Shown here: piece by piece, positions 3 to 51,817 of the stretch | Layout of the letters: the number at the start of each line of letters is the position of its first letter | How positions within the stretch are numbered: the stretch's first letter is position 1 | Source: a virus | IMG/VR virus record: IMGVR_UViG_3300025645_000048 | Span: 1 to 64,000 of that record | Length of the DNA stretch: 64,000 nt | Direction: 5' to 3' (one strand) | Notes under the pieces: model-generated | The model's input: only the letters and a program-made list of their open reading frames with translations | Told to the model about the DNA's origin: nothing | The model's database searches: none | Made by a program: the position numbers and the translations under genes

Positions 3-2048
3 GGTTTAAATACTGGAATTCCAAATTCTTTGACAAGTGCCAGTTTTAGCGAAAGTGGTGGGCAGTTAAAAGGGTTAACAATAGGCTACAGAACAGATGA
101 AACAACTGCTGTTATTGCCGCAAGAACTGCAACAGGTGATATAGCTTTTATGGGTTATAATGGTGGATGGTTAGAAACTGCAAGATTTACAAACGATAAT
201 AGATTAGGAATTGGAACGACTTCACCTACTTCAAAATTATCAATATTTGGTTCGCAAGCTGCTATAGATATAACAAGAGGTAATTCTGGAGATTCTAAAT
301 GGGAATTTTCTTCTGATTCAACTGCATTATATTTTTCAGAAATGTCAACTGGCACTCGTGCCTATATGATGGCTATAAAAGAAACAACTGGAAATGTAGG
401 AATCGGAACGACTTCGCCTGATAATATTTTACATATAGAAACTTCTAACGCTGGTGGTCCACAAATACAATTAGAAAGCACATCTGGTACAGCTAGTGCA
501 GCTTTTATTAATTTTGATAGTACTAGTTTACAATTGTCTACTCAAAGAGATATGGTAGATGGAGATTGGTATGATACATCAAAATCTTGGGGCGGAATAA
601 ATATACAAGGTCCAGCAAGCGGCTCTTTTATTACTTTTCACACAGCAGGAGCATCAAACACCAGCCCTACAGAAAGAATGCGTATAGTTCCTGCTGGTGC
701 AGTTGGAATTAATAATAGTTCCCCTGATAGTTTTAGTGGTGGTGGAAGCACAGCCGCATCATTAGTTATAGGTAAAGGAACAAGTGGTGTTTCACCGCAT
801 ATAACATTGTGGCAAGGTAATTCAGCTCAAGCCGCTATATCTTTTGCAAGTGCTAACACTGGTGCTGGTCAATATGAAGGTAGGATTCGTTATACAAGAG
901 ATACTGGTGTAATGGATTTTAGAACTAATGGTGTAGCTAATGTGTTGGTTTTAAATGCTAGTGGCAACGTAGGAATTGGAACGACTTCGCCTAATGAAAA
1001 ATTACAACTTGCTGGTAATCTTAATGCATATGCTCCTGGTGGTATTGATGCTGGTTTATTCGCAAGTACGGCCGCAGGTTCTACAACTATTGCAATAAGA
1101 TCAAGTGGTGTAACTCATTTTAATGGTGGTAACGTCGGGATCGGGACGGCTACGCCTGGAAGAGGTTTAACTATTGATAAATCTAATCAATATGCTGCAC
1201 TTGAAATAATAAAAAATAATACAACTAACCAAATTGTTTATTTAGGTACTGGTTCCAGTGCAGGAACTGATGATCCTATTCTGCAAATGAAACATAATGG
1301 CACAGAAAATATTAGATTATATGCGACTGGTAATAGTTGGATTAATGGCGGCAACGTAGGAATAGGAACTGATTCGCCTGGGGCTAAATTAGTAGTTTCA
1401 AATAGTGGGGCATTAGGATATGAAATAGACCCTTTAAATGCAAGTGGAGAAGTAGTTTCTATATTTTCTTACAATAGGTCAACTGCAGCTTGGAAAACAA
1501 CTAGATATTCATCACTAGACCATAGATTTGAAATCAATGGTACTACAGAAGCAATGCGTATTACAAGTGGGGGGAAAGTTAATATTGGACAAGGAACAAG
1601 TATTACAGGATTTTTAAATATTGAACAATCAGGAAATCATATTCATTTAAGAAATGGTGCTGCAGCATCTGGCAAATATTGGAATTTTGATGTAGCCAGT
1701 CAAAATAGATTATACATACTTAACAATGGAGATACAGGTGTTTATATAACAGATGGTGGCACGTCTTGGACTGCAAATTCTGATGAAACTTTAAAAGAAA
1801 ATATTAAACCTTTAAATAATGTTTTAGATAAAATAAAAGATTATAGATGTGTTGAATATAATTTAAAAAATGTACCTAATGATAAAAAAATAGGTTTTAT
1901 TGCACAAGATTGGGTGGATGATTTTGCCCCAATAGTTAATAAAGAAGATGATGGATTGTTAGGAATGAAATATACAGAAACAATTCCTGTCTTATTAAAA
2001 GCAATCCAAGAACTAAAAGCAGAAATAGAATTATTAAAAAATAAATAA
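3..2048 (+). CDS. Tail fibre protein with C-terminal intramolecular chaperone (peptidase S74-like), 5'-truncated by window edge
   Basis: Frame is open from position 3. Repeated GNVGIGTxSP modules; C-terminal SDETLKENI...GFIAQD...LLKAIQEL chaperone signature. Confidence 0.9.
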   Translation, partial: GLNTGIPNSLTSASFSESGGQLKGLTIGYRTDETTAVIAARTATGDIAFMGYNGGWLETARFTNDNRLGIGTTSPTSKLSIFGSQAAIDITRGNSGDSKWEFSSDSTALYFSEMSTGTRAYMMAIKETTGNVGIGTTSPDNILHIETSNAGGPQIQLESTSGTASAAFINFDSTSLQLSTQRDMVDGDWYDTSKSWGGINIQGPASGSFITFHTAGASNTSPTERMRIVPAGAVGINNSSPDSFSGGGSTAASLVIGKGTSGVSPHITLWQGNSAQAAISFASANTGAGQYEGRIRYTRDTGVMDFRTNGVANVLVLNASGNVGIGTTSPNEKLQLAGNLNAYAPGGIDAGLFASTAAGSTTIAIRSSGVTHFNGGNVGIGTATPGRGLTIDKSNQYAALEIIKNNTTNQIVYLGTGSSAGTDDPILQMKHNGTENIRLYATGNSWINGGNVGIGTDSPGAKLVVSNSGALGYEIDPLNASGEVVSIFSYNRSTAAWKTTRYSSLDHRFEINGTTEAMRITSGGKVNIGQGTSITGFLNIEQSGNHIHLRNGAAASGKYWNFDVASQNRLYILNNGDTGVYITDGGTSWTANSDETLKENIKPLNNVLDKIKDYRCVEYNLKNVPNDKKIGFIAQDWVDDFAPIVNKEDDGLLGMKYTETIPVLLKAIQELKAEIELLKNK

Positions 2049-3502: not shown

Positions 3503-4068
3503 TGCAGTCACCACATTCTTTCATAGTTCGACCAGTAAAAGGGAGAAGGTATGATAATATAAAAGACATTGGTGGTATTGACTTTATAACCAGTGTTTCT
3601 AAAGAAGACCATAAAGCATCTAATAGACATGCAGAAGTTGTGTCTACACCAGTAAATTATTCTGGAGATATAAAAAAAGGAGATATACTTTTAGTTCATC
3701 ACAATGTTTTTAAATTTTATTTTGACATGAAGGGTAGAGAAAAAAGTGGTAAAAGTTTTTTTAAAGATGATTTATTTTTTATTGACAATGATCAGTTTTT
3801 TTTATATAACAAAAAAGGTAAATGGTATGGTCATGACAAATATTGTTTTGTAAAACCTATTCCTAAAAAAGATTTTTATTTAAAAGGCATTGGTGTTAAG
3901 GAAGAACCCTTACATGGTGTAATAAAATACTCAAACAAACAATTAGAACAATTAGGTGTTAATGAAGGGGATGAAGTCTGTTTCACTCCTGATAGTGAAT
4001 ATGAGTTTTATGTTGATGATGAAAAATTATATCGTATGTTTACCAACAACATAGCATTAACATTATGA
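3502..4068 (+). CDS. Tandem GroES-like (co-chaperonin fold) protein
   Basis: Two GroES-like halves: FIVRP...AEVVSTP...IKKGDILLV and FVKP...GVIKY...VNEGDEVCF...EFYVDDEKLYRM. Confidence 0.6.
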   Translation: MQSPHSFIVRPVKGRRYDNIKDIGGIDFITSVSKEDHKASNRHAEVVSTPVNYSGDIKKGDILLVHHNVFKFYFDMKGREKSGKSFFKDDLFFIDNDQFFLYNKKGKWYGHDKYCFVKPIPKKDFYLKGIGVKEEPLHGVIKYSNKQLEQLGVNEGDEVCFTPDSEYEFYVDDEKLYRMFTNNIALTL

Positions 4069-10230: not shown

Positions 10231-11694
10231 ATGGCAGTACAAGCGGTACCCGGATTCGATTTACAACCGAGTTCACAACAAGTCCCTGTATCAACTAATT
10301 ATCTGTCTTCGGCAGACTTTACTTGGTTACAGCAATATCTTCCTGACACTTACGAAAAAGAATTCGAAAGATACGGGAATAGAACAGTAGCATCATTCTT
10401 AAGAATGGTAGGCGCTGAAATGCCTTCTAACTCTGACCTTATCAAATGGGCAGAACAAGGAAGGTTACACAATAAATACCAAGGTTTAACAACTGGATCA
10501 GGAGCAGGTTCTGATACAGCAGTATTCGTTATTCCAGCAGCAGATTTTAATCCAGCATTAGCTTCGCCAAATTTGGCAGCTCTTAGAGCAGGACAAACAG
10601 TAATGTTAAGTTCTTCTGTAGCAGGATCTACATTATCAGCTAAAGGAATTGTAACTGTAGCACCTACTGGAGCTGGAGCTGGAGCTAGAACTTTTAGTGT
10701 AGGATTTTATGAAGCAGCAGGTATGCCTGCATTTACTTCAGGTTCTATAGATTGTTTTATATATGGTTCTGAATTTGCAAAAGGAACAAATGGAATGGTT
10801 GGTTCTAATGAGGCAGATGATTTTATCTTTCAAAACAAACCTATTATTATCAAAGACAAGTATGCAGTGTCTGGTTCTGATATGGCTCAAATTGGTTGGA
10901 TTGAAATCCAGTCTGAAAACGGAGCTAATGGATATTTATGGTATCTTAAATCTGAGCACGAAACGAGACTTAGATTTGAAGACTATTTAGAAACAGCTAT
11001 GGTGGAAGCAGTTCCAGCTGAAGCAGGTTCAGATGCAGGTAATTATCTGCAAGGTTTATTAGCAGGTGGTGCATCAGCAGCAGAAAAATCTGGTTCTGAT
11101 GGTATCTTCTATGTTGTTGAAAATAGAGGTAATGTTTTTGGTGGAGGTAATCCAACAAGTTTAGCTCAGTTTGATAGTGTTATACAAAGACTAGACAAGC
11201 AAGGAGCTATTGAAGAAAATGTTATTTTCTTAAACAGAAACTTCTCGTTTGATATTGATGATATGTTAGCACAACAAAACTCTTATGGAGGTGGTGGTAC
11301 ATCATATGGTCTATTTGACAATGATAAAGACATGGCTTTAAATCTTGGATTTACAGGATTTAGAAGAGGTTATGACTTTTATAAGTCTGACTGGAAGTAC
11401 CTAAACGATCCTACAATGAGAGGTGGTTTAGTTGGTGGAGCAGTTAATGGATTATTAGTTCCAGCTGGTTCAACTACTGTATATGACCAAATCTTAGGAA
11501 AGAATGCTAAAAGACCATTCTTACACGTTAGATATAGAGCTTCTGAAACTGAAGATAGAAGATATAAAACTTGGATTACTGGTTCTGCTGGTGGTGCAAG
11601 AACTTCTGACTTAGATGCGATGGAAGTCAATTTCTTAAGTGAAAGAGCTGTATGTACTTTAGGTGCAAACAACTTCTTTATCTTTAAGGATTAA
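10231..11694 (+). CDS. Major capsid protein
   Basis: 487 aa after the scaffold; QYLPD.YEKEFERYGNR...WAEQGRLH pattern recalled from Bacteroidota podovirus capsids; followed by a terminator. Confidence 0.85.
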   Translation: MAVQAVPGFDLQPSSQQVPVSTNYLSSADFTWLQQYLPDTYEKEFERYGNRTVASFLRMVGAEMPSNSDLIKWAEQGRLHNKYQGLTTGSGAGSDTAVFVIPAADFNPALASPNLAALRAGQTVMLSSSVAGSTLSAKGIVTVAPTGAGAGARTFSVGFYEAAGMPAFTSGSIDCFIYGSEFAKGTNGMVGSNEADDFIFQNKPIIIKDKYAVSGSDMAQIGWIEIQSENGANGYLWYLKSEHETRLRFEDYLETAMVEAVPAEAGSDAGNYLQGLLAGGASAAEKSGSDGIFYVVENRGNVFGGGNPTSLAQFDSVIQRLDKQGAIEENVIFLNRNFSFDIDDMLAQQNSYGGGGTSYGLFDNDKDMALNLGFTGFRRGYDFYKSDWKYLNDPTMRGGLVGGAVNGLLVPAGSTTVYDQILGKNAKRPFLHVRYRASETEDRRYKTWITGSAGGARTSDLDAMEVNFLSERAVCTLGANNFFIFKD

Positions 11695-44952: not shown

Positions 44953-45067
44953 TTTGTACATCATAACTTAGTGCCACTAGTTCTTGAGTATCTTTTATTG
45001 ATTCTAATTGATTTTTAGAATACTTATCAGTAAGATTTAGTATTCTGTTTATTGCTCTTTCTCTCAT
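44939..45067 (-). CDS. Small hypothetical protein (MRERAINRIL...), not in ORF track
   Basis: 42-aa ORF with the same leader motif as its neighbours. Confidence 0.5.
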   Translation of the reverse strand: MRERAINRILNLTDKYSKNQLESIKDTQELVALSYDVQKILT

Positions 45068-45082
45068 ATTATTTAATTTAAG

Positions 45083-45721
45083 TTATACATTATTTGTTGA
45101 TTCTACAATCTCTGCACAAAGTTCTGATGGAATCTTACTTCTATCAAAGTAGCTTCCTCGACCTTGAGTTCCACTTTGACTTCCTCTTGGTGCAGATACA
45201 TGACAAGGATCTCCATTGTTACACATAGGTTTAGGAGTCCAATAAGTATTGTTGGTCCATATGTCTGTTGGCTTCATCCTATCATCTCCATACTGACAAT
45301 AGGTTAAAGTGTGTCGGACATGGTCAACATCATTCCAATGAGGAGACTTTCTCATCTTGCCTCTTGGATTCTCTATGTACCAAATCATATTAGGATTTTT
45401 CTTAAGGAGTATATCTATAATCTTCATAGTTCTCATTAAGATGTTTATTCCTTTGACTGCATTATTTGTCTTTGGCATAAACTCATGTCCTTTCTCCCAA
45501 TGATGTCCAATAGATGCTACAGAAAATGACTCACATGGTGGTGATGCCCATAACATATCTACTCTGTCAAAATTGATTGAACTAACCTGAAAATCCATAA
45601 TATCACAAACATAATTTGTGTTTGGGAAATCCACACAATCAGAAGAGAAGACTTTGTGTCCTCTCTTCTCTGCCTCTTTTCCTATGCTTCGGCTTCCACT
45701 AAAAAGTTCTACCACATTCAT
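45083..45721 (-). CDS. Short DNA (cytosine-5)-methyltransferase-like protein
   Basis: VVELFSGS (I), WASPPCESFS (IV), IENP (VI); compact 212-aa phage type. Confidence 0.85.
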   Translation of the reverse strand: MNVVELFSGSRSIGKEAEKRGHKVFSSDCVDFPNTNYVCDIMDFQVSSINFDRVDMLWASPPCESFSVASIGHHWEKGHEFMPKTNNAVKGINILMRTMKIIDILLKKNPNMIWYIENPRGKMRKSPHWNDVDHVRHTLTYCQYGDDRMKPTDIWTNNTYWTPKPMCNNGDPCHVSAPRGSQSGTQGRGSYFDRSKIPSELCAEIVESTNNV

Positions 45722-46062
45722 TGTTGGTTTCTTTTATAGTGACAAAAGATTAACCACTCATCAAGTCTGTCCTCAATGTAGTGTTGTAAATCAAAACTTA
45801 AGTCAGTTAGATAGTCGGCATAGTACTTAGTGTGGTCCACTTTTTTAGAAAGTGTCTGCCAATCTTTTGGTAATCTACCATTAAAATCTCCAATGATTTC
45901 ATTTTTGATTCTCTCCACTACAATAAGAGTTTGTCTTCTTACTAGTGGCATACTAAGGTGGAGATAATGCTCTTCCATAGCTTGTAAGAAATCATCTTTG
46001 TCGATAAATTCTTTGTCATAAGCATCAAGATTAAACTTTAATGCTTTCATAAATTTGCTCAT
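45718..46062 (-). CDS. Hypothetical protein downstream of the ribozyme
   Basis: ATG at 46062 (MSKFMKALK) with A-rich leader; preferred to the TTG start in the ORF track. Confidence 0.65.
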   Translation of the reverse strand: MSKFMKALKFNLDAYDKEFIDKDDFLQAMEEHYLHLSMPLVRRQTLIVVERIKNEIIGDFNGRLPKDWQTLSKKVDHTKYYADYLTDLSFDLQHYIEDRLDEWLIFCHYKRNQQ

Positions 46063-46080
46063 AATTATTTGTATTAAGTT

Positions 46081-46145
46081 AAACAATGACTCCCAGATGT
46101 CTGGGAGTTTCGTAGGTGTTTAAACCTTTACTCTTCAGATTGTTC
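46081..46145 (-). ncRNA. Hammerhead ribozyme, type I
   Basis: GAACAAU-CUGAAGA-GUAAAGGU UUAAAC ACCUAC-GAAA-CUCCCAG ACAU CUGGGAG-UC-AUUGUUU; full catalytic core and three stems. Confidence 0.92.
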
Positions 46146-46637
46146 TTTCTCTACAAAGTCATACTTCTGTCTTAAGTCTCCCTCTGTACATTCTTTAGGG
46201 AATAACTCTTCCATAAGTGCTTTCTCACAACTATACATCCATTTTGTGCCCTCCTTTTTTATTTGTTCGGCTTTCCTACTGCCTACTGAGGTGTCCTTAA
46301 TTAGTGTTTTATAAGTCTCAACAGAAATGTCTTTCCATAACTTCTTTAATTCTCCTTCAGAATCACACATAGTATTCCAAATGTTATTACCTTCTTTGTC
46401 ATATGCAGAGTCACCTAAAATAGTTATTTTATCTCCTTGCCACCTACCGATAATGGTAGATGGTTGAGGAATTGAATCTTTGTACTCTATGTGTCCTTCT
46501 GCCAATAGTAAAGCAAGTCCTTGCAGAATCTCTCCTCTACTGCTTATAATCTCTCCTATTTTTAACCCACTACCGAAAGTATGAGGAGTAAGTAGTTCTT
46601 TTTTTGTTTTGTTTATTACTCTAAAATATTGTCCCAT
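46128..46637 (-). CDS. Phage early-region protein (MGQYF...)
   Basis: MGQYFRVINKTKKE...GLKIGE...GRWQGDKI..LGD pattern; stop codon lies inside the ribozyme. Confidence 0.7.
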   Translation of the reverse strand: MGQYFRVINKTKKELLTPHTFGSGLKIGEIISSRGEILQGLALLLAEGHIEYKDSIPQPSTIIGRWQGDKITILGDSAYDKEGNNIWNTMCDSEGELKKLWKDISVETYKTLIKDTSVGSRKAEQIKKEGTKWMYSCEKALMEELFPKECTEGDLRQKYDFVEKEQSEE

Positions 46638-46639
46638 AA

Positions 46640-46855
46640 TTATTGTTTTTGTTCTTTTATTAGTTTATTAATGTCTTGTACTATTTTGAATACATTGTCT
46701 CCAACATCTGCACCTTCAATAATCCATTCTATTTTTTCTATAAGTTCTTTTTTGTTCATAATTATTGCTTTTGATTTATTTTTAGATTTTTCTATTAATA
46801 TTAATAAGTCATCTTGTGAATTGTTCCAATCCCAATATTCTTTAGTATTTCTCAT
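46640..46855 (-). CDS. Hypothetical protein
   Basis: Bounded by identical CAAAAACAATAATTATG junctions. Confidence 0.6.
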   Translation of the reverse strand: MRNTKEYWDWNNSQDDLLILIEKSKNKSKAIIMNKKELIEKIEWIIEGADVGDNVFKIVQDINKLIKEQKQ

Positions 46856-46857
46856 AA

Positions 46858-47148
46858 TTATTGTTTTTGATTTAAGATGAATTCATTTAAATGTTCTTTG
46901 TTGCTTTGGTCAAGCATCATATAGAACTCATAGAAGATTATTGTTCCAGTCATATTTCTTACAAATGGATTAGAACATTCTTCTCTTGCCTTAGTTAAGT
47001 GTGTAACCAAAGTATCCCATTTATCTTGTAGGTGGTTTGCAAGTAATGGATTGTCTGTCCAGACTCTATCAATAAAGTCATAGTGAAAATTGTTAGCATA
47101 GTAAGTAAATGCTACAATTGGGTCTTGTTTTGTTTTAGTGTGTGCCAT
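46858..47148 (-). CDS. Hypothetical protein
   Basis: Early ORF with TAACTATG start context. Confidence 0.65.
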   Translation of the reverse strand: MAHTKTKQDPIVAFTYYANNFHYDFIDRVWTDNPLLANHLQDKWDTLVTHLTKAREECSNPFVRNMTGTIIFYEFYMMLDQSNKEHLNEFILNQKQ

Positions 47149-47154
47149 AGTTAT

Positions 47155-47421
47155 TTATTTAATTGTTTTTAAAATTTTAGCATCATGCCATATATGAATC
47201 ATTGAGCATATAACATCATCTGTATGCTCTCCTTTATAATAGAAATTATACCAAGTTGTAAACTCTTCATCTGCTTTACAATATTCTTTTTTGAAAATCT
47301 CATATTCTTCATCACTTGTTCCGAACATATAGTTCAATGCTACATAACCATTTTTGTTGGTTTCTTTATACACCCAAAAGTCATCTACAACAAGGTGTTC
47401 AATCTTTAAAGTATTTTCCAT
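47155..47421 (-). CDS. Hypothetical protein
   Basis: Early ORF with TAACTATG start context. Confidence 0.6.
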   Translation of the reverse strand: MENTLKIEHLVVDDFWVYKETNKNGYVALNYMFGTSDEEYEIFKKEYCKADEEFTTWYNFYYKGEHTDDVICSMIHIWHDAKILKTIK

Positions 47422-47423
47422 AG

Positions 47424-47756
47424 TTATTTCTGTTTTTTAGATAGGTTAGTAATAATGTGTGCCATTGTATTTAAATGGTTTTCTAGTGGAGAATTTTTGT
47501 GTTCATTTCCATTCTCATCCAAGTGGATAATTGGAGATGAATTATCAAATTCCCAAGCTAGATCCTTTCCAGCTGTAGCATCCAAAACATCAATAATTCT
47601 ATTACATTGATTGATTTGTGCTTGAATAATTACTTGTTGTTTAGGCAAGGTTTTTTGTCCACTTATAGTGGTGTAGTAATTCTCTTCTAATCCCTCTTTT
47701 CTATTAGAGATTAAGTCTCGAATTAAGTCTAAATCTTTAGATTCAAATTGATTCAT
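47424..47756 (-). CDS. Hypothetical protein
   Basis: Likely start MNQFESK at 47756 after an A-rich leader. Confidence 0.6.
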   Translation of the reverse strand: MNQFESKDLDLIRDLISNRKEGLEENYYTTISGQKTLPKQQVIIQAQINQCNRIIDVLDATAGKDLAWEFDNSSPIIHLDENGNEHKNSPLENHLNTMAHIITNLSKKQK

Positions 47757-47793
47757 AATTTTATTAAATTTAATTATCTGCATTATTGCATTG

Positions 47794-47837
47794 AGATTAG
47801 GAGAGGAATCGAGCCTCTCCTTGTTCCAAACTAATCT
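47794..47837 (-). ncRNA. tRNA-like mini-element (acceptor-like stem + T-arm, no anticodon arm)
   Basis: AGATTAG-TTTGGAACAAG-GAGAGG-CTCGATT-CCTCTC-CTAATCT. Confidence 0.55.
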
Positions 47838-48469
47838 ATAGTACCACTTGTCATTCCTCTATTCAAGTAATACTCTTTCTCCTTACTTATCTCTTCTTCT
47901 GATTGTTGAGCATCTATAGTGAATAACACATCTTCTTCAATGTAATTGTCTCTCCATTGATTTGTGTCATAGTGCAACATTGCACCACCATCATTACCCT
48001 CATCATCAGTCTGAGGAATTAAGATAGTACCATCATCTAACCATAGTGCAAGTGGAGATTTGTACCATCCAAAACTCTCACATTCTTGTGGATTTAAGTG
48101 TCTGACATTAACAATCTTTCTACCAATTAGATGTGTGAATCTTGACCTATATTTATTGTGAGGTAGATTATTTACATAATCTTGAGCATTCTTACTTAAC
48201 TCTCTAAGCATTGCATTGACTTTATTTGGGTTTTTTGAATATTGTATACCATAAAGTCCTAACTTATAAGTGTTCTTAGCTTCTTTAATAAGTAGTCTAT
48301 CAGTTAACCAATCTGCAATAGTATTATTGTAGTAACCTTGCTTACTGATGAATTTCTTTGGATTCTTTCCTTGAGCAATCCATACTTGTTCTCTAATGTC
48401 CTTTAGAGTAAAAGGTTTGTCATCGAATTTATTAAATAGGTTGACAAAGATTTGTTGTTTGATTTTCAT
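47831..48469 (-). CDS. Hypothetical protein, two-domain
   Basis: Possible winged-helix N-terminus; C-terminal LIGRKIV.VR...GW...LWLDDGT...DDEGNDGGA domain. Confidence 0.7.
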   Translation of the reverse strand: MKIKQQIFVNLFNKFDDKPFTLKDIREQVWIAQGKNPKKFISKQGYYNNTIADWLTDRLLIKEAKNTYKLGLYGIQYSKNPNKVNAMLRELSKNAQDYVNNLPHNKYRSRFTHLIGRKIVNVRHLNPQECESFGWYKSPLALWLDDGTILIPQTDDEGNDGGAMLHYDTNQWRDNYIEEDVLFTIDAQQSEEEISKEKEYYLNRGMTSGTID

Positions 48470-48594
48470 TATGATGTGATTAAGTTAAAAGTTATAAATG
48501 TAATTCCTATAATATCAAAGAATAGTAATGTGTAGACTAAACAAGCTACTATAGGGTTAGTGTCATTCCAAATTGATTTGATTAAGTATTTCAT
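48469..48594 (-). CDS. 41-aa membrane peptide (MKYLIKSIWND...), not in ORF track
   Basis: TAACTATG start, hydrophobic segment, TAATG coupling to the next gene. Confidence 0.55.
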   Translation of the reverse strand: MKYLIKSIWNDTNPIVACLVYTLLFFDIIGITFITFNLITS

Positions 48595-48596
48595 AG

Positions 48597-48800
48597 TTAA
48601 GATATATTAGGGTTAAATTCAGTTATATAATAGTCTAGTAAATCATCTTTAGATTCTATTCTATTTTTATACAATGCATCTTGAGTTGCATAATATTTAG
48701 TGTTGGATTCAGTAATAGTGATGACATTACCATCTTCTATCCACTCATCAAACCTCTTTAAGATTTGAGAAAATTGATTATTTGTAAGTCTTATACTCAT
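48597..48800 (-). CDS. Hypothetical protein
   Basis: Early ORF with TAACTATG start. Confidence 0.6.
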   Translation of the reverse strand: MSIRLTNNQFSQILKRFDEWIEDGNVITITESNTKYYATQDALYKNRIESKDDLLDYYITEFNPNIS

Positions 48801-48805
48801 AGTTA

Positions 48806-48985
48806 TTATTTGTTAGGGTTAATGGTTACACAATAAGAAGAACTTCTTCCATCGGTTAATAATTCTTTAAATTTTAGACTTAATTCCTCTAGTCCATCTG
48901 TACTATTTTGAGGTTGAGTCTTAATCTCCATAGACACTAGGTTAGATAATTTTGCTAAGTCTGTAAGTGTTAGTCTTGTAATCAT
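48806..48985 (-). CDS. 59-aa hypothetical protein (MITRLTLTDL...), not in ORF track
   Basis: TAACTATG start; fills the gap. Confidence 0.55.
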   Translation of the reverse strand: MITRLTLTDLAKLSNLVSMEIKTQPQNSTDGLEELSLKFKELLTDGRSSSYCVTINPNK

Positions 48986-49199
48986 AGTTATAGGTTTAAA
49001 GGGTTAATGTTAATGTCTAATGCTTCACTCATTGTGAATACATTCTCGATAATAATAGTTAATTCATCCATTGTATTTAATTTAATTAAGTTAGATATGA
49101 GAGGTAAGTCACTGACTATCAGTGAGTTAGGTGTAAATTGTGTGTATAGTGTGTCTCTCATAGAGTAAATATACAATAAATATCTAATATATTACTAAT

Positions 49200-49670
49200 A
49201 CTTTACTAATACTTTTAGACTAGGAGAAACAATTCTCTTTAATACTTATTTCAAATGATTACTATTTAATATTTAATTGACTAATCATAATCAAGTGTGA
49301 AATGATAGTTGAGTTTTGTTTGTGTTTTGTTTAGTTGTAATTCAGTCGGTGAGGGGGTTAAGGGAAGGCTCTCTGTCTCTTCTCTTTTGTTTAACCAATT
49401 GAAGAGGGAAGGCTACAGATAGTGGAGTAGGAGTTATGTATACACCTAATTAACAAGGGATGTGAGGAGTCACACCTACCTAGTACCTACCTATGTCATA
49501 AGGGGTGGAGGAATTCTGAAAAAATCTGAAAAAAAAAGTTGAAATCCTTTTTTAATCAAAAAAAAATAATGACTTTCTGTGGGGGTGGGGTGTGTGTATA
49601 AGCACTAATAACCCTCAACCTCTATATATCTAATAACTCAAAAAAATTTTCAGTATCTTTACTATCTAAA
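49200..49670. other. Non-coding strand-switch region, candidate genome terminus/packaging site
   Basis: Divergent gene arms; G-runs, A-tracts, short repeats AGGGAAGGCT x2 and TCTGAAAAAA x2. Confidence 0.45.
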
Positions 49671-49679
49671 TTTATAGCT

Positions 49680-49877
49680 ATGAATAAATCTGATTACATT
49701 GATGGGTTGTACGTTAAGAACGGAAGACTTATAAATGAACGACCAAACAGTATGACTGGGATTCAAAAGGCAGTATCTATTAAACGATCAGTAACTAACG
49801 ATCGTAAGATAAATCAAGTTGCAGAAGCGATACAGTTAGCTGAAAATAAAAAGAACTTTAACGAACTTAATTTCTAA
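49680..49877 (+). CDS. Hypothetical protein
   Basis: First rightward ORF; followed by a terminator. Confidence 0.65.
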   Translation: MNKSDYIDGLYVKNGRLINERPNSMTGIQKAVSIKRSVTNDRKINQVAEAIQLAENKKNFNELNF

Positions 49878-49907
49878 AAAATTTTCTGTTTTCTTTTTGT
49901 TTGAATT

Positions 49908-49938
49908 AAGGGGTTTAGAAATAAATCTCTTTTTTTTT
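49908..49938 (+). terminator. Rho-independent terminator
   Basis: AGGGGTTTA-GAAA-TAAATCTCT hairpin followed by a T run. Confidence 0.7.
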
Positions 49939-50040
49939 GCAAAGTGTATGATAACTGACACAACTATGACAACTAAAATTTAAAATCGACACAACCTAAC
50001 TAACTGATTACTAGTACTTTTATTATTATAATTATTAATA

Positions 50041-50145
50041 ATGTCGATTATGTCGAAAAAAATACTATTATAAAAATAAAAAAAAAGTAAAGTATAGTAA
50101 AATATATATAGAGTGTATAGTAGCAAAAAACATTGTCATTTGACA
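50041..50145. other. Putative replication-origin-like element, copy B
   Basis: ATGTCGATTATGTCGA, then an AT-rich spacer, then TGTCATTTGACA; extra TGACA/CGACA boxes at about 49955-49992. Confidence 0.5.
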
Positions 50146-50203
50146 TTTTGCTTTTTCACAAATTATACTATCTTTGTTTAGTAATCTAATTTAATTTAAT
50201 CTA

Positions 50204-51817
50204 ATGAGTGCACAAGGCTATATACCCAAAGACCTAACTTTTGATGAAGAAGGTCGTAAACAATTAATCCAAGGAATTACTGCAATATCTAAAGCTGTAA
50301 AAAGTACGCTAGGCCCACGCGGTCAGACTGTACTCATTGAATCACCCGATCATGTTGGTGGAATCACAGTGACTAAGGATGGTGTGACTGTAGCCAAGTC
50401 TATATTCCTAGACAACCCAATAGAAAACCTAGCCATACAAATGATGAAGGATGCAGCAACTAGAACTGCTAACTCTGCGGGTGATGGGACAACTACTGCA
50501 ATAGTATTAACTGAAGCGATAGTAAATGCAGGACAAGAACTATTAAAAGAAAACCATAACATCACCGAGGTGATTAAAGCAATCAACAAGCATTGTGATA
50601 AAATAATTAGTATACTTGAAAAAGATGCCAAGAAGATTACTCCTGAAACTCTACTAGATGTTGCAACAATATCTGCCAACAACGACAAAGAGATAGGCCA
50701 GATAATATCTGATGCCTATAAAAAAGTTGGTGCCAATGGTATAGTTACTGTAGAAAAGTCACAGAACCACGAGACCTATGCCGAGGTGACTAATGGTATA
50801 AAAGTAGATCGAGGATACTCCTCACCTATGTTTTTGAACAATCATCGTAAAGACGAGTGTGTGCTTGAAGATGTCTTGGTCTTAGTGTGTGACATAACAA
50901 TTGACAATATTCTGCAAATAGAGAATGTACTCAAACCAATCATACAACAAAACAAGAAACTACTAATCATCGCACCATGTGCTGACAATGTGGTCAACAC
51001 TCTTGCGGCCAATGTGGTTCGTAATAATTTAAAAGTATGTACTGTTCTGCCTCCACAGTTTGGCTACAAAAGTCACGAGCTGATGCAAGATATAGCATTC
51101 GCGGTCGGTGCAAAAATATTCTCAGAACAAACTGGTGACGACTTAAGTCTTATAAACATGAACGACCTTGGTCATGTAGATAAAATAATAGTTGGTAAAG
51201 ACTCCAGTGTGTTAATCAAGGACGCAGACATAAGCGAGGCAACACAAAACAGAATAGAAGAGCTGAAGGAACAACAACAAAATATGACAATTAAAAGCGA
51301 TAAAGACTTTATAAACGAGAGAGTGGCAAGTCTAGCTGGTGCCATTGGTTGTATATATGTCGGAGCTAATAGCGACGTGGAGCAAAAAGAAAAATTTGAC
51401 CGAGTCGATGACTCGGTGTGTGCAGTTCGTAGCGCCTTGCAAGAAGGCATTATTCCCGGCGGAGGACTGGCACTATTTCATTGTGCTAGGTTTTTAAAAG
51501 AATATATTAAGTCATACAAGCCATTTGAGAACGAACCCAACATACAAGTAGCTGGTGAGATATTAGCCCAAGCAATACAAGTGCCATTAAAACAAATAAT
51601 TATTAATTCAGGTCAAGATGTGACTGAAATAATTAGTAAATTTCAACACATGGGAGGTAATATAGGATACGATGTTAAGAATGAAGATGTTGATGACATG
51701 TATGTGTTAGGTGTAATCGATCCACTTAAAGTAACTAAGAATGCACTGGTCAATGCAGTGTCTGTAGCCACAACAATACTATCAACTAATGCAATAATAA
51801 CACATAAACGAGCATGA
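50204..51817 (+). CDS. groEL: Phage-encoded chaperonin GroEL
   Basis: AVKSTLGPRG, TKDGVTVAK, AGDGTTTA, VATISAN, GIIPGGG, GVIDPLKVT; no GGM tail. Confidence 0.97.
   Translation: MSAQGYIPKDLTFDEEGRKQLIQGITAISKAVKSTLGPRGQTVLIESPDHVGGITVTKDGVTVAKSIFLDNPIENLAIQMMKDAATRTANSAGDGTTTAIVLTEAIVNAGQELLKENHNITEVIKAINKHCDKIISILEKDAKKITPETLLDVATISANNDKEIGQIISDAYKKVGANGIVTVEKSQNHETYAEVTNGIKVDRGYSSPMFLNNHRKDECVLEDVLVLVCDITIDNILQIENVLKPIIQQNKKLLIIAPCADNVVNTLAANVVRNNLKVCTVLPPQFGYKSHELMQDIAFAVGAKIFSEQTGDDLSLINMNDLGHVDKIIVGKDSSVLIKDADISEATQNRIEELKEQQQNMTIKSDKDFINERVASLAGAIGCIYVGANSDVEQKEKFDRVDDSVCAVRSALQEGIIPGGGLALFHCARFLKEYIKSYKPFENEPNIQVAGEILAQAIQVPLKQIIINSGQDVTEIISKFQHMGGNIGYDVKNEDVDDMYVLGVIDPLKVTKNALVNAVSVATTILSTNAIITHKRA

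Follow-up and report, generated by a model that had tools for sequence, protein, structure and literature searches.

A predicted type I hammerhead ribozyme at a gene junction of a marine phage and its relatives shortly upstream of the start codons of unrelated genes

Introduction

Hammerhead ribozymes have been known in phages since 2011, and their role there is still stated to be largely unknown (PMC3088659; PMC13725137), in agreement with a preliminary description of the locus treated here.

The closest described systems are the type I hammerheads of bacteria and phages (Perreault et al. 2011, PMC3088659; Rfam family RF00163). Such hammerheads flank genes in prophages and cut polycistronic constructs of about 2 kb in vitro, and those that flank single genes on one strand have been read as processing long phage transcripts into gene-length pieces (PMC3088659). 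In the HF1/HF2 haloviruses, a hammerhead is placed 13 nt before a start codon and the 5′ end of the transcript lies within 3 nt of the cut (PMC3088659). In the 5′-UTRs of chrysoviruses and fusariviruses, cleavage by a type I hammerhead upstream of the ORF is reported to be essential for translation initiation (Lopez-Galiano et al. 2026, PMC13725137).

The ribozyme described here occupies 46081..46145 on the minus strand of a viral window of 64,000 nucleotides (positions 1 to 64,000 of IMG/VR record IMGVR_UViG_3300025645_000048). It resembles the bacterial and phage type I hammerheads in its core, its open stem I, its long stem III and its position at a phage gene junction, and its relatives share with the hammerheads of PMC3088659 the arrays that flank single genes. 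Unlike the type I members of RF00163, it has a long stem II of 3+3 bp with an AA bulge and a nearly invariant 8-nt loop. The HHphage ribozyme of HF1/HF2 is similar in its short distance upstream of a start codon, its early region and its polycistronic transcript, but it is a variant hammerhead of an archaeal virus and is found at the first ORF of the transcript, not at an internal junction (PMC3088659). The chrysovirus and fusarivirus hammerheads are also of type I with a long helix III, and in one third of them helix II is 6 bp long and contains a bulged adenosine; they belong, however, to eukaryotic (fungal and plant) RNA viruses with cap-independent translation, so that they offer an analogy for mechanism only, common descent being unsupported (PMC13725137). 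Type I hammerheads in phages are already established. The single ribozyme at 46081..46145 adds little, and it is its family that gives a testable regularity.

Results

Anatomy of the ribozyme

The coordinates of the ribozyme and of the neighboring genes are collected in Table 1. Stems II (3+3 bp) and III (8 bp) are closed by loops and stem I (7 bp) is open, which is the topology of a type I hammerhead. The core agrees with the consensus at all positions: C3 U4 G5 A6 N7 G8 A9, G12 A13 A14, the A15.1-U16.1 pair and an H17 that is not G.

Table 1. Features of the hammerhead and of the adjoining genes, in window coordinates.
Feature	Position	Strand	Basis or remark
Complete type I hammerhead ribozyme, 65 nt	46081..46145	minus	sequence, descriptor, MFE fold
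Stem I, 5′ strand GAACAAU	46145-46139	minus	also codons E-Q-(S) of the upstream ORF
Catalytic core C3-A9, CUGAAGA, N7 = A	46138-46132	minus	sequence
Stem II hairpin GUA(AA)GGU-UUAAAC-ACCUAC, AA bulge, 3+3 bp	46131-46112	minus	sequence
UAA stop of ORF 46128..46637, inside stem II	46130-46128	minus	
Core G12 A13 A14 (GAA)	46111-46109	minus	sequence
Stem III hairpin ACUCCCAG-ACAU-CUGGGAGU, 8 bp including A15.1-U16.1 (A46108-U46089)	46108-46089	minus	sequence
C17; predicted cut on its 3′ side, 46088/46087	46088	minus	hammerhead consensus
Stem I, 3′ strand AUUGUUU (7 nt), with which the predicted 3′ product begins	46087-46081	minus	sequence
GUUUAA, complementary to loop II UUAAAC	46084-46079	minus	
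Predicted 25-nt 5′-OH leader, A/U-rich, without Shine-Dalgarno motif	46087-46063	minus	sequence
ATG of the downstream ORF	46062-46060	minus	
Upstream ORF, 169 aa, no family match; tail ...EQSEE*	46128..46637	minus	
Downstream ORF, 114 codons from ATG 46062, no family match	45718..46062	minus	
DNA methyltransferase, 212 aa, 4-nt overlap with the 114-codon ORF	45083..45721	minus	phrog_757, E = 4.3e-33

The three-way junction is the minimum free energy (MFE) fold of a 76-nt stretch, with -18.9 kcal/mol and z = -2.43, which one of 200 shuffles equalled, and the same junction is the MFE fold in a 118-nt context. In contrast, the predicted 3′ product has essentially no structure in its first 55 nt (-2.3 kcal/mol), for which an equal or better fold was obtained with 182 of 200 shuffles. 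The preliminary description had proposed a complete type I hammerhead on the minus strand with each of these elements in place, and this is borne out by the sequence, the MFE fold, the shuffles, the synteny and the covariation presented below. The cut that it predicted between 46088 and 46087 agrees, as to position, with the hammerhead rule. Since the next ATG is at 46062, such a cut would give a leader of 25 nt, as had also been proposed.

A descriptor made for this analysis requires every core position and uninterrupted stems of 4, 3 and 3 bp or more, and covers all three circular permutations on both strands. Its sole match in the 89,305-bp single-contig genome is the hammerhead at 46081..46145, which has 18 stem pairs. 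Among 200 dinucleotide-preserving shuffles of the genome, the descriptor found 21 matches in total (one of type I, 13 of type II and seven of type III), none of any type with 18 or more pairs. A chance origin of the hammerhead is excluded.

The family model R1 also has this hammerhead as its only match in the genome, with 81.8 bits, a score to be read with the caveat that the same sequence was in R1. A second hammerhead in the 89,305-bp genome was found neither by the descriptor nor by R1 at E values up to 10, the model being biased toward the stem II of 46081..46145.

Relatives at the same junction

The 169-aa protein encoded upstream of the ribozyme was used as a query, so that relatives were gathered by protein and not by RNA, and it yielded five viral loci. 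In three of them, L001 (81% identity), L002 (55%) and L005 (50%), a hammerhead is found in the same place, overlapping the same C-terminal codons. In L005, stem III has been rebuilt by compensatory change from CUCCCAG/CUGGGAG to CCCUUCAA/UUGAGGGG, and N7 is G instead of A, a change that leaves the amino acid of the overlapping codon unaltered.

The ribozyme is absent from L003 and L004, where the homologue ends in ...FVEK* and ...FVEKEQEVS*, respectively. At this junction L003 has a tRNA-Arg(UCU) (3504-3578), 20 nt past the stop of the homologue and about 35 nt before the next ATG. L004 has a tRNA-like element of about 115 nt with acceptor, D and T arms, which scores 24.3 bits on the tRNA-Sec model, below its threshold. 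tRNA elements are cut by RNase P and RNase Z, as is presumed for these two junctions. The tRNA-type elements thus resemble tRNA punctuation and tRNA-like signals between cistrons: they occupy the junction of the hammerhead in relatives, and both kinds of element create RNA ends. They differ in that a hammerhead cuts by itself and the tRNA elements need RNase P and RNase Z of the host.

The wider family and its covariation

A wider set was collected with a search pattern that fixed the core together with the outer positions of stem II and left eight loop-side bases free, so that the invariance of the core and of most of stem II in the resulting sets is not independent evidence. The stem II pattern was found in 14 viral and 96 metagenome stretches, many of them from ocean surveys. 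Of the 115 matches, 113 are complete type I hammerheads whose stem I measures 6-9 bp; L101 and L115 have the same stem II but are type III permutations.

The family comprises 61 unique ribozyme sequences, whose stems I and III are many and different. Position N7 of the core is A, U, G or C in the relatives, the other six positions being fixed as forced by the pattern. H17 is C, A or U in the 61 unique relatives, the parser having excluded G. The eight free bases of stem II are nearly constant in the same 61, UUUNAACA, and only the fourth varies freely. When stem II alone served as the query, a perfect core accompanied it in 13 of 14 viral matches; the fourteenth, L201, is a type III form in which the 15.1-16.1 pair is swapped to U-A.

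Covariation was scored among the unique members no longer than 80 nt, 47 in number; 41 of them were aligned, and the six with the longest stem III (L102, L147, L150, L182, L183 and L198) were left out. Pairing was found in 95.7% of the cells, against 72.2% after shuffling and 34-42% with slid partners, and the covariation score was 0.555 against 0.145, a value reached by none of 500 shuffles. Changes on both sides were seen in 12 of the 13 varying pairs, namely in all seven pairs of stem I and in five of the six scored pairs of stem III. Stem II, mostly forced by the pattern, is invariant in this alignment and hence uninformative on covariation. Stems I and III covary so as to keep pairing, and selection therefore acts on the RNA.

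Arrays of type I hammerheads on a single strand are found in relatives: at least two are present in 36 of 116 loci, with six in 3.4 kb in L096 and five in 2.8 kb in L102. As the phage genome with 46081..46145 has a single hammerhead, unlike these arrays, full processing of the operon here cannot rest on hammerheads alone.

Of 17 sequencing runs listed for the region, none contains half of its sequence words. The RNA runs X2 and X11 match 46107-46139 only, inside contigs of 2.9-3.3 kb that belong to another member of the family. The three RNA runs (X2, X5 and X11) and X12, whose kind is unspecified, are represented by contigs at depth 2-14; none of these contigs bridges 46088/46087 or gives usable RNA ends, so that they bear neither way on cleavage or expression.

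Matches to Rfam models

Whole-window comparison with Rfam at the gathering threshold gave no match, and a comparison of 401 nt around the site at E values up to 10 gave no hammerhead. When only 86 nt were used at E up to 10, the sole match was RAGATH-1-hammerhead (RF03152), with 23.3 bits against a gathering score of 56.3. Hammerhead_1 (RF00163; gathering score 34 bits) was not matched at E up to 10 by either the 401 or the 86 nt. The comparison with hammerhead models by Infernal, which the preliminary description had named as a check, is thus negative at the Rfam thresholds.

As the best Rfam match, RAGATH-1 aligns over the core and the first part of stem III (CGAAACUCCC...GGGAGUC). The alignment covers only model positions 21-77, and positions 1-20, the 5′ extension, are unmatched. 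Moreover, stem II of the RAGATH-1 model is a single pair, in contrast to the 20-nt bulged hairpin found here, which forms a 17-nt insertion relative to the model.

The relatives behave in the same way. In a comparison of 20 family loci with Rfam at E up to 1, the ribozyme was reported in none of the 19 type I members; the twentieth locus, the type III form L115, scored 33.6 bits on Hammerhead_3, under the cut-off of 48.5. A separate hammerhead in L153 scored 30.1 bits on Hammerhead_1 against the cut-off of 34. The Rfam miss is read here as the result of models that are too narrow and not of a false RNA, since Hammerhead_1 has 45 positions and the RNA described here has a stem II of 20 nt and a stem III of 20 nt.

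Loop II and stem I

The preliminary description noted that loop II, UUAAAC, is complementary to GUUUAA just past the cut site, and suggested a pseudoknot between them. The complementarity is present in this sequence, but the pseudoknot is not a conserved feature of the family. Among the 41 aligned sequences the two elements pair in 51.2% of cells against 51.0% after shuffling, and 262 of 500 shuffles do as well. In close relatives the A at loop position 4 is replaced by U or C (UUUUAAC, UUUCAAC) and GUUUAA is unchanged. The pseudoknot as a conserved feature was accordingly rejected, a conclusion that applies to the family and not to this one sequence. Partial complements to loop II are cheap, since it belongs to the palindrome GUUUAAAC and the DNA is rich in A/U.

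A tertiary contact between stem I and loop II is needed for fast hammerhead cleavage at physiological Mg2+. The A eight bases past the cut (+8) is invariant in all 41 aligned members and loop II is nearly so, which makes some contact of this kind plausible from the sequences. Stem I-II pseudoknots are described for about 40% of hammerheads (Perreault et al. 2011, PMC3088659).

Operon, neighboring genes and host

The minus strand from 49176 to 43806 holds 18 tightly packed ORFs, among which only two gaps exceed 25 nt: one of 65 nt filled by the hammerhead and one of 47 nt at 47784-47830. The hammerhead was initially placed between early genes. It does lie at a gene junction, but it is not strictly intergenic, as its first 18 nt belong to ORF 46128..46637, of which they form the final five codons and the stop. 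The ...EQSEE* tail of this ORF is read from stem I, the core and the beginning of stem II. Similarly, the ATG at 46062 is upstream of the small methyltransferase, as had been noted, but it opens the 114-codon ORF, and the methyltransferase gene comes after it. The 212-aa methyltransferase scores 21.9 bits against Pfam DNA_methylase, for which the cut-off is 22.

Genes farther down the minus strand encode an exonuclease, a primase-helicase, a C5 methyltransferase and a SNF2 helicase. From this gene content (small ORFs, methyltransferases, exonuclease and primase-helicase) we infer that the leftward block is probably early. The box TAnnTTTG is the -7 promoter element of the Bacteroidota type; it was not found on the minus strand of 45,613-50,300, and the promoter of the transcript was not located.

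A blastn search of 45000-47200 against phage records gave seven records, which match over part of the methyltransferase only, and so no cultured close relative was found by this search. With the primase-helicase as a tblastn query, 39 phage records were found, and every named host belongs to the Bacteroidota: Flavobacterium (21), Nonlabens (4), and also Polaribacter, Cellulophaga, Bacteroides and Maribacter. The host of the phage is probably a member of the same phylum. A scan of genome contigs, which gave three matches, was rejected as a source of host information: one was a chance match in a Geopseudomonas contig of 59.5% G+C, and those in Arcobacteraceae and Ilumatobacteraceae MAG bins are family members in contigs of 28-32% G+C, taken as mis-binned phage DNA.

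Placement before start codons

The family occurs in 94 distinct contexts, and in 92 of them an ATG-led ORF of 40 codons or more is present no farther than 400 nt from the cut. The distance from the cut to the ATG is 19-32 nt in 89 of these 92 and 22-27 nt in 82, with outliers at 71, 135 and 158 nt. The 63 distinct downstream proteins form at least 35 unrelated clusters (BLASTP, E <= 1e-5, a lower-bound clustering), so that inheritance along with a single gene does not account for the spacing.

The 74 distinct leaders are of 22-27 nt in 67 cases. None has a Shine-Dalgarno-like 4-mer in its last 18 nt, and G makes up 3% of the bases; position -12 is an A in 95% of the leaders and position -6 in 86%, and position -3 is a purine in 93%. 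Bacteroidetes mRNAs are described as lacking a Shine-Dalgarno sequence, and the structure of the mRNA and upstream bases such as A-3 as tuning initiation (PMC6847099). The leaders behind the hammerheads match this description.

A second set was picked by the sequence of stem III with stem II left free. It comprises 83 contexts with 59 different stem IIs, and stem I has 4 bp or more in 80 of them. Here the same preference is seen, but the spacing is looser and right-skewed, with 18-55 nt in 71 of 79 and 22-33 nt in 47 of 79 contexts.

A literature search of partial coverage did not find the stem II family, its invisibility to Rfam or the fixed distance between cut and ATG described; the supplements of the 2011 paper (Dataset S1, Figures S4-S5) may cover the family and its tertiary contacts.

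Discussion

The evidence argues with good confidence for a functional cis-cleaving type I hammerhead on a polycistronic transcript that runs leftward in a marine phage, probably one that infects Bacteroidota. By analogy with the proposal of Perreault et al. (2011, PMC3088659) for phages, the hammerhead most likely cuts a polycistronic early transcript. The 65-nt motif would fold into its three-way junction during transcription and would cut itself after C46088. The upstream RNA would then end just beyond the stop of the 169-aa gene, with a 2′,3′-cyclic phosphate behind the stable hairpins II and III. The downstream RNA would begin with a 5′-OH and an unstructured, A/U-rich leader of 25 nt without a Shine-Dalgarno sequence, followed by the 114-codon ORF and the small methyltransferase gene. 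The ribozyme would thus act as a punctuation mark, by which an internal cistron becomes 5′-proximal and the fates of the two RNA halves are uncoupled. Four elements of this scheme are inferred: that the site is transcribed, that the RNA is cut, which chemical ends arise (deduced from how hammerheads cleave) and what follows for stability or translation.

A more far-reaching reading joins these observations and is offered tentatively, as one that is possible and on balance doubtful. The ribosomes of the Bacteroidota ignore Shine-Dalgarno sequences, and the hammerheads of their phages would be promoter-independent makers of 5′ ends, for which tRNA or tRNA-like elements would be interchangeable. 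The new end with its A-rich leader of 22-27 nt would be required for efficient translation of the downstream gene, the spacing would be selected for initiation, and the built-in stop would let translation of the upstream gene modulate cutting. The fixed spacing could, however, reflect the minimal unstructured leader that a ribosome accepts beside a folded RNA, combined with genome compaction, with no role for the new 5′ end, and the right-skewed spread of distances in the broader set fits compaction at least as well as it fits such a role.

The last element of that reading can be taken by itself as a refinement of the cis-cleaving hammerhead favored here. A ribosome terminating on the upstream gene would unfold stem I, the core and stem II, so that cutting would depend on upstream translation. 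This is unlikely, if not without points in its favor. In the phage the UAA of ORF 46128..46637 lies in stem II, and in 68 of the 84 family contexts with a long open frame the upstream stop falls between -17 and +8 of the core: as the UAA of stem II (+8) in 19, as the UGA of the core (+1) in three, which makes 22 with the stop inside the ribozyme, and 3-17 nt before the core in 46. However, the module has UGA and UAA in two of the three frames, so that any ORF entering it must stop there, and the stop within the ribozyme could equally be a by-product of these built-in triplets. Stops that abut the ribozyme are, moreover, expected from compaction alone, and in the remaining 16 of the 84 contexts the stop is 75-202 nt upstream. 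A ribozyme of 65 nt can also fold and cut co-transcriptionally ahead of the ribosome.

It is less probable still that the near-invariant 32-nt module of core and stem II is a linker for recombination at the DNA level, which shuffles cassettes of small genes among co-infecting phages, ribozyme activity being secondary. Such a role would agree with the presence of the same module before at least 35 unrelated genes, with the differences between relatives in the genes that follow the conserved 169-aa gene and the ribozyme, with the occurrence of the module in both type I and type III permutations, and with a single stem I (GGUUAA) that is found with differing stem IIs. It is the covariation of stems I and III, an indication of selection on the RNA, that speaks against it, together with the intact core in 13 of the 14 matches to the module alone and with the pattern in the loop, where position 4 is free and its neighbors are not, as is typical of an RNA structure.

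The stem III hairpin with its U-rich tail CAUUGUUU might be taken for an intrinsic transcription terminator as its main function, and a simple consensus scan does list 46108-46089 with this tail as one of four terminator-like sites in 45000-50300, against a shuffle mean of 1.7. This explanation is very improbable. An intrinsic terminator should show a conserved G+C-rich hairpin followed directly by a run of U, and the U-rich tail is absent in most members; the largest group of the family has ...GUCUUAACCAAU past stem III, with two U in any 8-nt window. A terminator would also leave unexplained the invariant core, the covariation of stem I and the start of a gene 25 nt downstream with no promoter-like box before it, and the genes on the same strand continue with gaps of at most 15 nt. 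Finally, a chance match or a decayed, inactive relic, to which the lack of an Rfam hammerhead match at threshold might point, is highly improbable in view of the shuffle controls, the syntenic conservation with compensatory changes, the covariation and the full consensus core.

The cis-cleaving hammerhead as a mark between cistrons thus remains the preferred reading, and its interest lies in the regularity of the family: the same module is found 22-27 nt before the start codons of dozens of unrelated genes, with leaders that lack a Shine-Dalgarno sequence and with a stop codon often inside the ribozyme. That this widespread marine family is missed by the Rfam hammerhead models means that standard annotation under-counts phage ribozymes. 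The placement of the module and its replacement by tRNA-type elements fit a role in RNA punctuation, and suggest a link to translation initiation in the Bacteroidota.

Coding overlap and the hammerhead junction in relatives

The hammerhead sequence at window positions 46128-46145 also encodes the C-terminal tail EQSEE* of the upstream 169-aa protein. In relatives, the fourth residue of this tail follows the free position of the ribozyme core CUGANGA (N7), being Glu where N7 is A or G and Asp where it is U or C. The homologues from two viral loci without the hammerhead, L003 and L004, end in ...FVEK* and ...FVEKEQEVS*, respectively.

The same junction, after the gene of the 169-aa homologue, is occupied in L003 by a tRNA-Arg(UCU) (positions 3504-3578, identified with ARAGORN) and in L004 by a tRNA-like element of ~115 nt (3612-3726), which contains a 58-nt insertion and scores 24.3 bits with the tRNA-Sec model, below the threshold. 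The run of 18 minus-strand open-reading frames in the window has, besides the hammerhead gap, only one gap longer than 25 nt, and this second gap holds an acceptor/T-arm-like sequence (see the table). The T-arm-like hairpin was recovered in the MFE fold of this segment (z = -1.34), while the 7-bp acceptor-like stem was absent from it.

Features related to the hammerhead in the window and in relatives
Feature	Locus	Positions	Strand	Remarks
44-nt acceptor/T-arm-like sequence	window	47784-47837	-	in second gap >25 nt; sequence present
Type III permuted hammerhead	L101	about 10810-10880	+	same stem II module
Type III permuted hammerhead	L115	about 100-165	+	same stem II module
Type III form	L201	5960-6110	-	same stem II module; 15.1-16.1 pair U-A, not A-U
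Hammerhead array	L096	189-3356	+	six type I copies in 3.4 kb
Hammerhead array	L102	3905-6685	+	five type I copies in 2.8 kb

Conserved and permuted forms of the family

The A located eight bases past the predicted cut (alignment column 70, window 46080) is identical in all 41 aligned family members, while the stem I that surrounds it varies. In many unrelated phage type I hammerheads, too, AA comes after a stem I of 6 bp. The invariant A may contact loop II as its tertiary partner.

The stem II module of the window is present also in permuted hammerheads of type III (L101 and L115). The type III form of L201, with its exchanged 15.1-16.1 pair, is possibly weakened or inactive.

Type I hammerheads form arrays on one strand, with approximately one copy per small gene, in the relatives L096, L102, L095, L194 and L134; in the remaining array copies stem II is short and of the GGAUU-NAAU-AUCC type. 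Two family members are found on genome contigs of 28-32% G+C (L203 and L204), in MAG bins labeled as Arcobacteraceae and Ilumatobacteraceae, and these contigs are probably phage DNA mis-binned into bacterial genomes.
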